Positions 10,959-58,134 of a stretch of DNA of 64,000 nt are shown here, piece after piece (within the stretch, counting starts at the first letter, position 1; every line of letters begins with the position of its first letter). Position numbers and translations under genes: made by a program. The DNA is from an uncultured Gammaproteobacteria bacterium (lineage in GTDB: Bacteria; Patescibacteriota; Patescibacteriia; UBA1558; S5-K13): the NCBI GenBank assembly GCA_964486685.1, contig CAZAOE010000003.1, positions 5,306-69,305 on the forward strand, read 5' to 3'. Below the pieces are notes generated by a model, which did no database searches, was not told the DNA's origin, and saw only the letters and a program-made list of their open reading frames with translations.

Positions 10959-11054
10959 TTTATCAAGTTAATTATTGGGTCGTCCGCCTACGCATAAAGC
11001 TACGGCAGGACTGAAATAAAATTAAAATTTGATATTTAAAATTTATTTGAAATT

Positions 11055-12665: not shown

Positions 12666-12925
12666 TATAATGTTATCTGACTAAAGAAGAGTGTGGTTGT
12701 GTCACTTTTGTCACCTTTTAAAGAAGCGCTCGAGGATCTTATTTATTGAAATGAAGAAAAATGCTAGAATAACCTTACTGGGCTTGACGAAATTGGGGTT
12801 CCAGCCCGATGTAGCCCGCCAATTAATTCGTTAGAATTAATTGTCCTGAGCGAAGTCGAAGGACACTCGAAAAATCATCTACTAGGTAGATGTTTTTTGT
12901 TTGAAAAATTGATAAAATAAAAAAA

Positions 12926-26017: not shown

Positions 26018-26087
26018 AAAATATGTTTCCCGCGCCCTACAAAACATTTAGCCAGAATTTAAAATAAATGCCTTTAAAGATTTTAAC

Positions 26088-26130
26088 AGCTCCCCTCCTC
26101 AGACGAGGAGGGGATTAAGGGGTGGTGTTG
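26088..26130. repeat. GC-rich palindrome GCTCCCCTCCTC-AGAC-GAGGAGGGGAT (family A-like) between the two comEC parts
   Basis: perfect 11-bp arms. Confidence 0.7.
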
Positions 26131-26189
26131 ATTAAAGTCTTAAACTTAGCTATCTGAAAAAATAATAATTAATTAAAATCTAAAAAATT

Positions 26190-30661: not shown

Positions 30662-30780
30662 TTGAATAATAGAATAATAGGTTAATAGAAAATCATCATT
30701 TTTATACTTATAAATAATAAAATTATTCGTACTATTGGTATCATTCGTATAATTTATTAGTATTATTAGTACCATTCGTA

Positions 30781-30804
30781 CCTGCCTGCCGGCAGGCAGG
30801 TATT
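30781..30804. repeat. second exact copy of CCTGCCTGCCGGCAGGCAGGTATT, ~20 nt upstream of ackA
   Basis: identical to 11055-11078. Confidence 0.8.
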
Positions 30805-30825
30805 AGCATTATAATCATTAGTATT

Positions 30826-43610: not shown

Positions 43611-44687
43611 CTAGCTAACTATATTCAAACTATATTTACAATTCTGACATAAACCACTCTTGTCATTCCTTGTAATGATATACCCTTGTCTTTCAATATT
43701 CAAGGCCCCACACTCTGGACAATAGGTATTTTCTCTATCATCTTCCGCAATATTACCTAAATAAACATATTTTAAACCTACTTCCTTACCAATACCATAG
43801 GCCTGATCTAATTCTTTTTCTGAAGTAGCTTGCTTAGACAAAAGTTTATAAGAAATTTCTGGAGAAAATTTAGAAATATGCCAAGGTGTATCTACACCCA
43901 ATTCTTTTTTAATAAACTCAGCTATCTTCTTAATTTGTCCTTGAACATTAGTTTCTCCTGGAATAATTAGAGTAGTCACCTCTATAAAAACTTTTTTTTG
44001 TTTTAAATAAACTAAATTATTTAGAATTGGTTCTAAAGAACCTCCTGTTATTCTTTTATATTTTTTATCTAAGAAAAATTTTAAGTCCACATTAATAGCA
44101 TCTAAATAGGGGAGTATTAAATCCAAACATTTTTGACTCATAAAACCATTAGAAACCCAGACATTTTTTAATTTATGTTCATGGGCCAATTTCATAATTG
44201 GCAAAGCAGTTTCCAAAAATACTGTTGGTTCAGTATAGGTATAAGCAATGGAAAGACAATTATTATCTTTAGCTTCGGCAATGATTTCTGCGGGCTCAAT
44301 TAATTCTCCAGGAAATCTACTATCTAATTTCTCAATTTTTTGTAACTGGGAAATCTGCCAATTCTGACAATTAAGACAATGAAAATTACAGCCCATGCCA
44401 GCAATAGAATAAGTCAAACTACCTGGTAAAAAATGAAAAAAAGGTTTCTTTTCAATAGGATCAATGTTTTTAGCAATCAATTTATTATAATTTAAAGCAT
44501 ATAATTTGCCCTGAATATTTTTCCGCACCCCACAAACCCCAACATGATTTTCAGCAATACTACAAAAATGATTGCATAACTCGCAATTTACAACACCGCT
44601 AACTTTCTCCCCCTTTTTAAGAGGGAGGTGTCCGGAGGACAAAGAGGGTTTACCTTTTTTATATAATAAAGCTTCGTGCATACTCAT
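43611..44687 (-). CDS. radical SAM enzyme, AmmeMemoRadiSam-system (AmrS)/PflA-like
   Basis: CNFHCLNCQNW cluster motif; C-terminal CPECG...CQNCK zinc ribbon; N-terminus carries in-frame family-A element. Confidence 0.7.
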   Translation of the reverse strand: MSMHEALLYKKGKPSLSSGHLPLKKGEKVSGVVNCELCNHFCSIAENHVGVCGVRKNIQGKLYALNYNKLIAKNIDPIEKKPFFHFLPGSLTYSIAGMGCNFHCLNCQNWQISQLQKIEKLDSRFPGELIEPAEIIAEAKDNNCLSIAYTYTEPTVFLETALPIMKLAHEHKLKNVWVSNGFMSQKCLDLILPYLDAINVDLKFFLDKKYKRITGGSLEPILNNLVYLKQKKVFIEVTTLIIPGETNVQGQIKKIAEFIKKELGVDTPWHISKFSPEISYKLLSKQATSEKELDQAYGIGKEVGLKYVYLGNIAEDDRENTYCPECGALNIERQGYIITRNDKSGLCQNCKYSLNIVS

Positions 44688-52291: not shown

Positions 52292-52660
52292 TCAATTTCT
52301 TCTTTTAAATTTACCTAAATCTCTCAAAAAATCTCGCAAAAACCTTATTGCCTCAGAACAATTATGATAAGAATCTTTTTGTTCTTCTTTTAAATAATTA
52401 CCTCCTATACCTATTTCTTCTCCAGTACTAACTTTTTCTCCCAACATATCATTTCCTATTTTTTCTAACTTTTCAATGTAATCATTAACCGCTCTTTCAA
52501 CTTCTGAAACCCCCACAATCTCTTCATTAAGCTTATCAATTAGTTCTTTGGCTGTTAATTCTCCATTTACAATATCATTAAGCCTACCATTAAAAATTTC
52601 TTTAATATTATCCTCTGCATGATTAATGGCTTCCATGGCCTCGGCGGGTAGTCCACACAT
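52292..52660 (-). CDS. hypothetical acidic helical protein (lone minus-strand gene)
   Basis: 122 aa; no motifs. Confidence 0.35.
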   Translation of the reverse strand: MCGLPAEAMEAINHAEDNIKEIFNGRLNDIVNGELTAKELIDKLNEEIVGVSEVERAVNDYIEKLEKIGNDMLGEKVSTGEEIGIGGNYLKEEQKDSYHNCSEAIRFLRDFLRDLGKFKRRN

Positions 52661-55779: not shown

Positions 55780-58134
55780 TCAATTTTTTAAAAATCTCTT
55801 TACCAATTTTTCTGCTTCTTGAATATTTTTAACCCAGACAATATCTTTCCTTTTCTTAAACCAGGTTAATTGCCTTTTAGCAAAATGATGGATGTCCTTA
55901 GATAAGTTTTGAAATAATTCCTGCTCATTAATTTCTTTTTTTAGGTATTTGGCTATCCAACGATATTCTAACCCAAAATCAGCTAAACGCTTCCAAGAGA
56001 CCCCATTTTTTCGCAAATTTCGCACCTCTTGAACCATTCCTTGTTTTTCCAAACGATATTTTAACCGCTTATCAATGCATTTATAAATTATATCTTTATC
56101 CCAATACTTATTATTAAATTGTGTGGATTTATCCCCACCACCTTTCTTGAGGTGTGGGGATTTATCATGCTTTATACCTAAAATCAAAATGTCTAAATCT
56201 GGTTTTTTCTTTTTCATTTTAGTAATAGAATTACCGCTTTTAGCTATTTCAATCGCCCGGATTATTCTTCGCAAATTATTTACATCTATAGTTTTAAAAG
56301 CTTTGGGGTCTAATTTCTTCAACTTATTTTGCAATTGTTTTAAAGATAATTTATTCAACTGAGCTCTTAATTTTTTATCTATTTTTATATCTTCTAAAAC
56401 ATAACCATCAATAATTGAATTCAAATACAAACCTGTCCCGCCAACTAAAATTGGTAATTTACCTTGCTGATTTAATTCTTCAATCTTTTCAAAAGCTAAT
56501 TTTTGCCAATCTTTTAAAGTAATTTGCTCTTTAGGATTAGCAATATCTATCAAATGATAAGAAATGCCTTTGTAATCTCCCAAATCCTTACCAGTCCCAA
56601 TATCCATTCCTTTATAAACTTGCCGTGAATCAGCTGAAATTATTTCTCCTTTAAACTTCTTAGCTAAATCAACTCCAATTTTTGTTTTTCCACAAGCAGT
56701 GGGACCGAGGACTACTACTAATTTATTTCTAACTTTCTCAGCTTCCATACTCCAATTCAAGGCACCAGTAATCTTAACATTAATAAATTTACCCAGCACC
56801 TTTTTATCCAAAATGGTGCTGGGTTTACCCAAATCTTCTTTTTGAACATTTTTAACTCTTACCGTCTCATTATTTTTCATTTTAGCCACAGCAATATTAC
56901 TCTTAACGCTTTGCACTAAAACTCTCTCTGTACTTCCAACAAATTTCTTGTTTTTCTGAGCTGATATTTGAGCAACTGCTTTAGTAACTTCTTCATCCCG
57001 AGCTCTTTTTTCTTTTTGAGTAATTTCATCTTCATAAATCTTAGCTGATACTGCACCTGGACGAGGAGAGTAGAGTCCAGTAAAAATTGAAGTAAATTTA
57101 CATTTTTTCACAGCTCGTAAAGAATCTTGAAAATCTTTTTTAGTTTCCTTTGGAAAACCAAGAATAATATCAGTAGTTAAATTAGCTTCTGGAATATATT
57201 TATAAATCTGCTCAACTATCTTATAAAACTGTTTCAGATCATATTTCCGATTCATTAATTTCAAAATTTTGTCACTTCCGGATTGTAATGGTAAATGGAT
57301 ATGCTTGGAAATATTATCATATTTAGCAATAACTTTAATTAATTTTAAATCAAATTTACTTGGATAAGGAGAAAGAAAACTAATCCAAGTATTTGGTTTT
57401 AAAATTGCTACTTGTTCTAATAAATCCGCGAAGTCCCGAACTTGCCTGCCCTGTCTTGGACCTCGACTGTGATGGAGAGGAGTTTGTCGAAGGGGTTGAT
57501 GGGCGAAGTCCCAAGCCTGTCGAGGGGCGAAGTCTTTAATCTTTGATTTCTGATCAGAATTAAGATAAGAATTAACGGTTTGACCTAATAAAATAATTTT
57601 TTTAACTTCATCACTCAAATTTTTCACTTCTTTTAATATTTTCTGAACTGAACGATTCACTTCTCGACCGCGAGTATAGGGCACAGCACAATAAGTACAA
57701 AATTGATTACAGCCATTGGATATAGGGATTAAGGCCTCAAAACTATTTTCTGCTTTAGAATTTACTTCCAAATATAAATTATTTTCCGGACAATATTGAT
57801 AATGCTTTTTATGGGCCTCAATTAAGTTTGGCAATTCTTTAATTTTAGTAATATCAATAATAATATCAAACCTATCTTGTAATTTTTTAAAATCAGTAGC
57901 CAAAACACAGCCACTTAAAATTTTAATTACCCCTTTCTTTAATTTCTTTTTATGAAAAACTCCGTAAGCTCGATCAATTGCACTTTGACGAACACTACAA
58001 GAAAGGATAGCTATAATATCTGCTTTTTCCATTTGTTCTACTTTTTCAAATCCAACTGTATCAAAAACAGTAGCCAATTTCTCTGCATCAGCTTGATTCA
58101 TCGCACAACCGAAATATCTTAAGTAGTATCTCAT
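55780..58134 (-). CDS. miaB-miaA: fusion protein: MiaB-like methylthiotransferase fused to MiaA tRNA dimethylallyltransferase
   Basis: 784 aa; N-terminal MTTase domain (YFGCAMNQ), radical SAM CNQFCTYC, then P-loop VVLGPTACGKT...ADSRQVYKGMDIGT of MiaA; two in-frame GC-rich insertions. Confidence 0.8.
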   Translation of the reverse strand: MRYYLRYFGCAMNQADAEKLATVFDTVGFEKVEQMEKADIIAILSCSVRQSAIDRAYGVFHKKKLKKGVIKILSGCVLATDFKKLQDRFDIIIDITKIKELPNLIEAHKKHYQYCPENNLYLEVNSKAENSFEALIPISNGCNQFCTYCAVPYTRGREVNRSVQKILKEVKNLSDEVKKIILLGQTVNSYLNSDQKSKIKDFAPRQAWDFAHQPLRQTPLHHSRGPRQGRQVRDFADLLEQVAILKPNTWISFLSPYPSKFDLKLIKVIAKYDNISKHIHLPLQSGSDKILKLMNRKYDLKQFYKIVEQIYKYIPEANLTTDIILGFPKETKKDFQDSLRAVKKCKFTSIFTGLYSPRPGAVSAKIYEDEITQKEKRARDEEVTKAVAQISAQKNKKFVGSTERVLVQSVKSNIAVAKMKNNETVRVKNVQKEDLGKPSTILDKKVLGKFINVKITGALNWSMEAEKVRNKLVVVLGPTACGKTKIGVDLAKKFKGEIISADSRQVYKGMDIGTGKDLGDYKGISYHLIDIANPKEQITLKDWQKLAFEKIEELNQQGKLPILVGGTGLYLNSIIDGYVLEDIKIDKKLRAQLNKLSLKQLQNKLKKLDPKAFKTIDVNNLRRIIRAIEIAKSGNSITKMKKKKPDLDILILGIKHDKSPHLKKGGGDKSTQFNNKYWDKDIIYKCIDKRLKYRLEKQGMVQEVRNLRKNGVSWKRLADFGLEYRWIAKYLKKEINEQELFQNLSKDIHHFAKRQLTWFKKRKDIVWVKNIQEAEKLVKRFLKN
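56131..56161. repeat. in-frame palindromic mini-element (family B) ATCCCCACCACCTT-TCTTG-AGGTGTGGGGAT inside miaA, encoding SPHLKKGGGDK
   Basis: sister copy of 36492-36528. Confidence 0.8.
57426..57536. repeat. GC-rich ~110-bp in-frame insertion in miaB with triple GCGAAGTC(C) direct repeat and CCCCTCGACAGGCTT motif
   Basis: ~55% GC versus ~30% genome; inserted between conserved NVNxY and FADLL segments; related CCCCTCGACAAGCTC tandem at window positions 25-59. Confidence 0.75.

Follow-up and report, generated by a model that had tools for sequence, protein, structure and literature searches.

A GC-rich in-frame insert in a Patescibacteria miaB-miaA gene carries a short repeat dispersed across phyla

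We asked why the most GC-rich stretch in an AT-rich piece of a Patescibacteria (candidate phyla radiation, CPR) genome should lie inside a conserved housekeeping gene. The locus is part of contig CAZAOE010000003.1 (assembly GCA_964486685.1), of which we analyzed positions 5,306 to 69,305; this whole 64-kb stretch is the window, and the genome it comes from is referred to as the query. The gene is an open reading frame (ORF) of 784 aa at 55780..58134 on the minus strand, and its Pfam domains, UPF0004, Radical_SAM and TRAM of MiaB followed by IPPT of MiaA, identify it as a MiaB-MiaA fusion. A protein search returned fusion orthologues at 60-76% identity, and the gene order thrS-miaBA-pyrB-pyrI is kept in the relatives that have the fusion. 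A first-pass annotation had pointed to a GC-rich block in the miaB part, and a sliding-window calculation bears this out. The GC content of 57426-57536 is 0.595 (59.5%) against a window mean of 0.297 (z=4.4), and it ranks first among all 111-nt stretches of the window, above both tRNA genes. We consider it rather probable that the block was inserted in frame and consists of one full copy and several fragments of a short dispersed repeat core, and that it is translated as a disordered loop and tolerated without a function, as selfish or neutral DNA resembling repetitive extragenic palindromes (REPs) and Rickettsia palindromic elements (RPEs).

That the block is an insertion follows from comparison with orthologues. 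Set codon by codon against the empty sites of two relatives (P0005, locus L004; and L130), the query carries an additional 99 nt, or 33 codons of GC content 0.60, at 57436..57534 on the minus strand; owing to an 8-nt repeat, 57428-57526 is an alternative placement. The empty-site DNA reads AAA GAC TTT GCA / GAC TTG TTA, with the slash at the insertion point. The peptide KDFADLL is uninterrupted in 13 of the 18 close fusion orthologues that we aligned, and at the DNA level the site is also empty in L130, one further relative. Between VNSY and FADLL the query has 33 residues that empty-site orthologues lack, close to the first estimate of about 35. The reading frame is unbroken, and the block translates without a stop as KDFA[PRQAWDFAHQPLRQTPLHHSRGPRQGRQVRDFA]DLL, that is, KDFA-PRQAWDFA-HQPLRQTPLHHSRGPRQGRQVRDFA-DLL, including the peptide DFAPRQAWDFAHQPLR. 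The three direct copies of the word GCGAAGTC that had been noticed earlier start at 57428, 57503 and 57527, the first two reading GCGAAGTCC and the third GCGAAGTCT, and CCCCTCGACAGGCTT lies at 57513-57527 on the minus (coding) strand. A metagenome survey for close miaB relatives, in which presence/absence polymorphism was sought, gave one match, with an empty site, and a query-specific 25-mer had 0 matches in the Joint Genome Institute (JGI) metagenomes.

Within the radical-SAM domain of MiaB, the insert falls in a loop that joins a beta-strand (LLGQTVNSY) to the helix after it (FADLL), and the length of this loop varies across Patescibacteria homologues. The solved MiaB of Bacteroides uniformis (7mjz) aligns with the query through NSY (residue 221) and again from residue 231, leaving a gap of 42 residues on the query side. 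In an AlphaFold model built on a 22-sequence alignment (mean predicted local distance difference test score, pLDDT, 77), residues 187-230 are coil with pLDDT 26-32, and disorder is predicted for the loop, in which Arg, Gln and Pro abound.

The family to which the insert belongs came into view through a relative. In the contig of P0017, the spacer upstream of miaB holds CGAAGTCCTGAGCTTGTCAAAGG, the reverse complement of the miaB word including GACTTCG, and this led us to scan representative genomes, one for each of 185,579 species, for the pattern CCYTYGACARGCTYRGGACTTCG (match counts are lower bounds). The pattern occurs in at least 119 stretches of these species-representative genomes, against about 0.5 expected by chance, according to our own estimate from 18 fixed and 5 two-fold positions and ~1.2e12 strand positions. 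Among the matches listed, to which all statements below on family-wide counts, hosts and contexts refer, the hosts are Omnitrophota, many Patescibacteria, Eremiobacterota, Sphingomonadales, Kiritimatiellae, Planctomycetota, Chloroflexota, Ignavibacteriota and others, and the GC content of the loci runs from 35% to 73%. The core is near-invariant and its flanks are genome-specific. Parts of the core (19-25 nt) are also found in plasmids or chromids of cultured Sphingobium, Phyllobacterium, Comamonas, Rhizobium, Novosphingobium and Pseudanabaena. There were 0 core matches in 2.9 million viral contigs and no Rfam match at the core in 15 canonical loci, and a literature search that included core strings and encoded peptides found no description of the repeat.

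Core positions 3 and 15 (CCY...RGG) are T-A in 93 of the matches listed, C-G in 25, T-G in 3 and C-A in 2; the miaB copy has C...G at this pair. The co-variation is consistent with a conserved loop of 11 nt on a short CCY/RGG stem, and two subfamilies separated by a single double change could suffice to produce it. An outer stem around the core was rejected as a general feature, a perfect 5-bp stem being present at the best offset in ~9 of 116 listed copies. The six bases upstream of the core read CTTCGY in 55-60% of listed copies, so that the extended core has CTTCG twice, 24 nt apart, and copies from Kiritimatiellae and Omnitrophota read GACTTCGTCCCTCGACAAGCTCGGGACTTCGC, with both 'DFA' words of the miaB block.

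The miaB insert is a member of this cross-phyla family by virtue of its first unit, a full core copy with the 24-nt period at 57502..57534 on the minus strand (coding strand GACTTCGC CCCTCGACAGGCTTGG GACTTCGCC). An ungapped profile hidden Markov model (HMM) made from foreign copies only and run with nhmmer finds this unit at 57503-57533 (minus strand) with E=1.5e-7 and 28.3 bits; the same profile gives E=2.3e-9 for the miaB insert of the relative P0015 and E=3.5e-9 for the P0017 spacer copy. Over 29 nt the unit differs from an Omnitrophota copy (L029) by 1 mismatch, and it has 32-nt matches in foreign copies that span both GACTTCG words, and the first 32 nt of the insert match the core CTTCGY-CCYTCGACARGCTYRGGACTTCG. 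The remainder, all on the minus strand, holds a second, degenerate core fragment, CCCCTTCGACAAACTCC without the GGACTTCG end (57479..57495; pattern with 1 mismatch, and a weak partial nhmmer match at E=2.3); a module CAGGGCAGGCAAGT (57440..57453), identical at 14/14 positions in the Omnitrophota loci L020 and L087, where it adjoins the core 3' in both; and a 3' module GCAAGTTCGGGACTTCGC (57428..57445), identical at 18/18 positions to the insert of P0017 (L006 2085-2102) and at 14/14 to that of P0018 (L007). Judged by these matches, the block is a mosaic of repeat-family modules.

The three GCGAAGTC copies are accordingly the repeat's own periodic word, with its 24-nt period, and not simply a duplicated target, since CTTCG occurs twice, 24 nt apart, in foreign extended cores. 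A simple target-site duplication was rejected on the ground that the family consensus in unrelated genomes includes the 24-nt spacing as well as both GACTTCG words. Identity as a local tandem repeat (minisatellite) was rejected as well: with its minimum score set to 30, Tandem Repeats Finder (TRF) detects no array in the block, and the sole recurring word there, 8 nt long, has spacings of 24 and 75 nt.

Could the block be a chimeric join made through a shared repeat in assembly or binning? Short repeats common to many genomes can mislead assemblers, and nearly all copies among the matches listed come from metagenome-assembled genomes. Set against this, an independent assembly is 100% identical over 8322 nt including the insert, and the contig was seen in 9 samples; the flanks are continuous in-frame miaB codons; four other assemblies have related inserts at the same codon; and the core occurs in closed genomes, that of Candidatus Velamenicoccus archaeovorus being among the matches listed, and in the cultured-strain plasmids named above. 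Because the independent assembly is identical over 8.3 kb that include it, the block is no assembly artefact, and the chance that it is one strikes us as negligible.

How does the family behave in other genes? At loci of up to 50% GC, 26 of 69 copies lie within long ORFs, 13 in each orientation, and intergenic copies follow no orientation rule; a strand bias, which would suggest an RNA function, was looked for and not seen. Core copies lie in frame in housekeeping genes, among them those for LeuRS (L020), QueA (L093) and the Pol I 5' nuclease (L047), and also in genes for TatD (L060, twice), a GatB/YqeY-domain protein (L102) and others. The QueA copy falls in a segment of 28 residues where Thermotoga maritima QueA (1vky) has 9, and the Pol I copy adds 4 residues to a loop relative to the solved structure. 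Across such genes both orientations of the core are seen, and several frames. The repeat has no linked gene: ORF clustering of the 119 listed loci, of up to 8 kb, gave no recurrent neighbour, the commonest family being present in 6 loci, and within the same loci no recurrent neighbour protein indicates an association with REP-associated tyrosine transposases (RAYTs, IS200-like), although genes located elsewhere in the genome may act on the repeat. Thus the earlier proposal of a mobile mini-element family that tolerates in-frame insertion stands as regards the family, given the profile match at E=1.5e-7, and as regards tolerance, given the other genes; its word 'mobile' draws on the distribution, no transposition machinery having been found.

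The relatives of the query complicate the history of the site. The first-pass annotation had named conservation in MiaB of relatives as what would refute an insertion; the 13 uninterrupted orthologues agree with an insertion, and the shorter versions of 24-30 nt that are present in 4 of the 18 close relatives were not foreseen. These inserts sit at exactly the same codon, each followed by a second GAYTTYGC. Three measure 24 nt (CCT CAG CAA GTT CGG GAC TTC GCA in P0017, TCT CAA CAA GTT CGG GAC TTT GCT in P0018 and CTT CGA CAA GCT CAG GAC TTT GCG in P0015), and the fourth, in P0013, 30 nt. The insert peptides among carriers are PQQVR, LRQAQ, PRTQSVR and, in the query, 33 aa. The core at the site is of the T-A subtype in P0015 (CCTTCGACAAGCTCAGG) and of the C-G subtype in the query and P0017. 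In a neighbour-joining tree, P0017, P0018 and P0015, with their 24-nt insert, form the basal branches, and the query's sisters P0008 and P0010 and a large crown group have no insert. The site is either old, with at least 3-4 precise losses, or has been struck repeatedly.

We therefore weighed whether the loop is an old feature, derived from one ancestral 24-nt insertion that was repeatedly and precisely lost through the 8-nt repeats and that grew in the query by local slippage or duplication, other copies having contributed nothing recently. The basal relatives share a 24-nt insert at the same codon, the GAYTTYGC direct repeats would favour precise deletion or duplication, and the 18/18 identity between the 3' end of the query insert and the P0017 insert favours shared ancestry of that part. 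Nevertheless, such a history appears unlikely to us: it requires at least 3-4 independent precise losses, it leaves P0015 with a subtype other than that of the query and P0017, and it has to accommodate a first unit that is nearer to Omnitrophota (1 mismatch in 29) than to any relative's insert, and an extra 75 nt with other modules (CAGGGCAGGCAAGT and the second core fragment) that do not duplicate neighbouring sequence. As the P0015 subtype differs and the first unit is nearer to other phyla than to any relative's insert, we conclude that the site probably has a mixed history, with an old 24-nt insert and later additions or replacement.

Given its position in a tRNA-binding enzyme, the insert might also have been put to use, with an Arg-rich loop that holds tRNA or with a GC-rich mRNA stretch that serves as a pause or stability element. 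MiaB, of which solved complexes (7mjv-7mjz) are available, binds tRNA; the encoded peptide is basic (6 Arg in 33 residues), and GC-rich codons are kept in a 30% GC genome and in distant relatives. Against a use stand the absence of the insert from most close relatives, including the sisters P0008 and P0010, the great differences among the peptides of carriers, and the occurrence of the core in other genes in either orientation and several frames. Neither the peptide nor the RNA has a predicted structure: a search of 57380-57580 found no inverted repeats, fold prediction does not give the miaB copy even the 5-bp hairpin of the core, and Rfam returned no match at E<=5 for the block or for a canonical core copy. 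A use of this kind is in our view distinctly improbable.

Less probable still, to the point of being scarcely credible, is that the insert never reaches the protein, being removed by RNA splicing or passed over by ribosomes between the matching GAC TTC GC codons. A GC-rich insert with identical edge codons in an AT-rich genome does have the layout of take-off and landing sites. Ribosome bypassing is known from gene 60 of phage T4, and the GC-rich 'byp' inserts of Magnusiomyces mitochondria are reportedly skipped by ribosomes between take-off and landing codons. However, all five inserts at the miaB site are multiples of three (24, 24, 24, 30 and 99 nt) and stop-free, in-frame copies in other genes are stop-free too, and the block lacks the stable hairpin that bypassing needs. 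A self-splicing intron, ribozyme or other known RNA family was rejected, as no Rfam covariance model matches the block; across the window, Rfam 15 gave nothing at gathering score except two tRNAs, which lie outside the block, and a search for tRNAs and tmRNAs added nothing to these two.

We accordingly return to the reading set out at the start. The insert is most likely read through with the gene, tolerated and without a function of its own, because the sisters lack it, its peptides vary freely and no fold is predicted for either its RNA or its protein. The repeat's terminal word, GACTTCG, is identical to the native codons GAY TTY GC (Asp-Phe-Ala), and on account of this identity we propose that the repeat entered and grew by pairing of the two over 8 nt during replication or repair, through template switching or short-homology recombination with another copy; some sequence-directed enzyme or a templated copying step would fit the data equally well. 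Growth by any of these routes would be in whole 24-nt periods and, 24 being a multiple of three, would keep the frame. The 99-nt version would be an older 24-nt insert, as in the basal relatives, enlarged by further family modules.

Several observations weigh against an insertion of selfish or neutral repeat DNA. The basal 24-nt inserts allow a single old insertion with losses, as opposed to recent activity. In a 30% GC genome, and in relatives no more than 60-65% identical, the GC-rich codons have been kept although a purely neutral insert ought to have decayed, which hints at constraint or repeated renewal. The core hairpin is weak (5-bp stem, 11-nt loop, -5 to -7 kcal/mol, z -0.5 to -1.1), and the RNA or DNA fold of the miaB block is no better than that of shuffles on either strand (z about +1). 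Because no mobilising enzyme, donor copy or within-species presence/absence polymorphism was found, mobility has to be read from the distribution. Flanking duplications measure 8 nt at the miaB insert, 6-7 nt and 34 nt at other mini-inserts and, at two core copies next to tRNA genes, 45 nt (L056, where they cover the promoter and the first 13 nt of tRNA-Met) and 13 nt (L063); this range of 6-45 nt is unlike the fixed stagger of one transposase and does not fit any one simple mechanism. Finally, the near-identity of a 23-mer across phyla fits no selfish-DNA model that we can name.

In addition to the full core copy in miaB, the window holds two partial tandem copies (22-61) and one variant hairpin (12845), and blastn-short found no further full copies in it, matching 10-mers only. 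A near-identical word in tandem at the window start had been reported, and it is there: a 20-nt x 2 repeat, TTTAACCCCTCGACAAGCTC, at 22..61 on the plus strand (TRF, 100% match, 2.0 copies), each unit a partial core, contains CCCCTCGACAAGCTC, a near-twin of CCCCTCGACAGGCTT, at 27-41 and 47-61. The tandem units at 23-62 match the foreign-copy profile over core positions 4-23 with E=0.0056 and 0.0077, and words of the CCCCTCGACAAGCTC type with up to 3 mismatches have 4 matches in the window against 0.31 expected. The link drawn earlier to a site at 12850 holds too, by way of a hairpin. The intergenic hairpin GTCCTGAGCGAAGTCGAAGGAC at 12845..12866 on the plus strand is a core variant in reverse orientation, with a 3-nt in place of a 2-nt centre; it fits the relaxed pattern CCTGAGCN{2,3}GTCGAAGG, which has 1 match in the window (12845-12862) against 0 in 100 shuffles, and 3-nt-centre variants co-occur with the core in fetched loci. 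The ungapped profile is not significant at the hairpin (E=5.5), and the 9-mer of the site on its own, with 6 matches in the window against 2.85 expected, is not above chance.

The same gene carries two further mini-inserts on the minus strand, both of which map to low-confidence AlphaFold loops. At 56792..56832 (residues 436-447), an unrelated 36-nt hairpin element, CCCAGCACCATTTTGGATAAAAAGGTGCTGGGTAAA, encodes (LGK)PSTILDKKVLGK and is missing in most orthologues; it has a perfect 9-bp stem and a DNA fold z of -7.1 and is flanked by GGGTAAA. Two genomes have the element, which encodes PSTIL(D/A)KKVLGK, in miaB, and a third has it in an unrelated gene of 134 aa; copies elsewhere lie at L002 15792-15823 (the 134-aa gene, in the P0015 genome) and L008 6243-6274. 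Its target is each time GAT TTR GGT AAA / TTT A, again with a slash at the junction, and the window orthologue of the 134-aa gene (52292..52660) has an empty site. Since the target is the same in unrelated genes, this element lands on a specific sequence resembling its own end. The third lineage-specific insert, in the MiaA half at 56104..56169 (HDKSPHLKKGGGDKSTQFNNKY; residues 656-677, with pLDDT below 50 at residues 658-676), is unique to the query among 22 homologues and has a hairpin, CCCCACACC..GGTGGTGGGG, between direct repeats GATAAATCC. Peptides resembling 'SP.LKKGG' also occur in P0007 (NPSPFFKKGVGI) and at the N-terminus of ORF 43611..44687 (KPSLSSGHLPLKKGEKVSG, in a GC-rich island at 44596-44649). 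In the same MiaB loop, at two positions, the three non-sister relatives P0015, P0002 and P0012 carry a palindromic insert of ~57-60 nt, CCTGTTAAAT...ATTTAACAGG, that resembles MITEs (miniature transposable elements with inverted repeats) and encodes PVK(S/F)CGAGISPSVKLFNRV (L002 10574-10633, L008 and L009).

Some family copies lie in settings of their own. In Patescibacteria, core copies abut the 5' ends of tRNA genes (L056 2126-2289, L063 6375-6525, L071 4676-4755); two tRNA-adjacent copies come directly after GGTAGCTC, with promoter and tRNA 5' end duplicated, and the tRNA region of L063 also has a group I intron (Rfam RF00028, 6085-6363). In Omnitrophota, tandem 24-nt core units lie inside ORFs at L064 and L067 (including Ca. 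Velamenicoccus archaeovorus NZ_CP019384.1) that are open across the whole 8-kb loci, at 2,666 codons, so that the repeat builds repetitive protein segments in some genomes. At L006 1283-1445 lies a palindromic element, ~160 nt long, whose terminal inverted repeats, CTTTGTCATTTCGAC / GTCGAAATGACAAAG, are perfect over 15 nt; it has the core in one arm and, in the other, a 'CCTTCGCTAAAGCTACGG' module like those at window positions 231-300 and 10972-11017.

Elsewhere in the window, positions 198-386 hold a 34-nt direct repeat (198-231 and 353-386, 85% identical) around a 121-nt block, in which tandem GC-rich 12-mers and 18-mers (CTTCCTTCGCTA; AAAGCTACGGAAGTCAAG) give way to an AT-rich tail. In the first 34-nt copy there is an orphaned gene start, MKIFITGGA, which meets a stop after 16 codons; the second falls within the real rfbB-like gene, whose present start is a new ATG (342) in the inserted tail (MTKNNKTKIFITGGAGFIG). 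Further short GC-rich, mostly palindromic islands, at 1387-1463, 2483-2551, 26082-26133, 30767-30811, 58434-58543, 58700-58772 and 60711-60814, are mostly intergenic, have no Rfam match at gathering score and apparently represent several other repeat families.

The insertion targets described above bear on a bolder explanation, which we hold to be possible but rather unlikely: that the 23-32-nt core is an undescribed 'nano-element', inserted in a sequence-directed way at sites resembling its own ends, growing in 24-nt steps and moved by some trans-acting driver. This driver may be, for example, RNA- or single-stranded-DNA-templated copying that leaves the 8-45 nt duplications around core copies. 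The suggestion is prompted by the miaB target GAYTTYGC, the two tRNA-adjacent copies after GGTAGCTC and the shared 15-nt target of the 36-nt element. If it were correct, ultra-small bacteria would have in the family a general means of acquiring new surface loops in their proteins.

To return to the reading we prefer, the miaB insert itself is probably a harmless passenger, but it points to a widespread repeat that seeds new loops in essential proteins. Rickettsia and a few REP families are known to have short selfish repeats in essential genes; we found no description from Patescibacteria, and here three separate mini-inserts lie in one housekeeping gene, in a genome of 30% GC. If our reading is right, it would explain many odd, low-confidence, Arg/Gln/Pro/Ser-rich segments of metagenome proteins (LRQAQDF, PSTSSGL, FDKLRTS, SPELVEG, LSLSKG), which affect alignments, structure prediction and annotation. 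It would also pose the puzzle of a 23-mer that stays constant across phyla with no linked gene, and would offer a natural system for the birth of protein loops from non-coding DNA.

Among known systems, MITEs are similarly small, non-autonomous, dispersed and sometimes located within genes, but the element has no terminal inverted repeats and no fixed-length target duplication, and its flanking repeats are part of the consensus; for the first two reasons we do not class it as a MITE. Yeast mitochondrial GC clusters and the Magnusiomyces 'byp' elements are short mobile GC-rich inserts in AT-rich organellar genomes, also in coding genes. The miaB insert shares with them its composition, its layout and the matching words at both edges. 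Unlike byps, which are skipped and need not keep the frame, every insert at the miaB site is in frame and stop-free.

RPEs offer a closer parallel. They are reportedly 100-150 nt long, clearly palindromic and confined to Rickettsia. Like them, the element is a short selfish repeat of a small AT-rich genome that is intergenic as well as in frame in housekeeping genes; it is inserted in conserved genes whose orthologues lack it (miaB and others), would be translated as an extra surface peptide and has no linked transposase. Unlike RPEs, its unit measures 24-32 nt, the miaB copy has neither an inverted repeat nor a fold signal, and the core is found in many phyla.

REPs of the GTAG and CGTC types are likewise stem-loop repeats of 20-40 nt, single or clustered, and some lie inside genes. 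Intragenic REPs encode 20-30 extra residues, CGTC REPs are without a dedicated transposase, and alphaproteobacteria are rich in them (PMC3733652). They have stems of 8-9 bp, loops of 4-5 nt and a CCA tail (Di Nocera et al. 2013, PMC3733652). CGTC stands at the 5' edge (CTTCGTCC) in ~58% of the copies among the matches listed; position -1 is T (CGTC) in 67 of 116 and C (CGCC) in 48 of 116, the miaB copy having CGCC, and sphingomonad core copies pair with an inverted partner that starts with GTAG. The core differs from REPs in its stem of 3-5 bp and its 11-nt loop, a comparison made by description, as the text of PMC3733652 does not give consensus letters. The element thus behaves like RPEs and intragenic REPs but fails their structural definitions. 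REP sequences are species- or genus-specific, whereas this 23-mer is near-invariant across phyla, and it is the spread of the core across phyla that lies furthest from the described systems.

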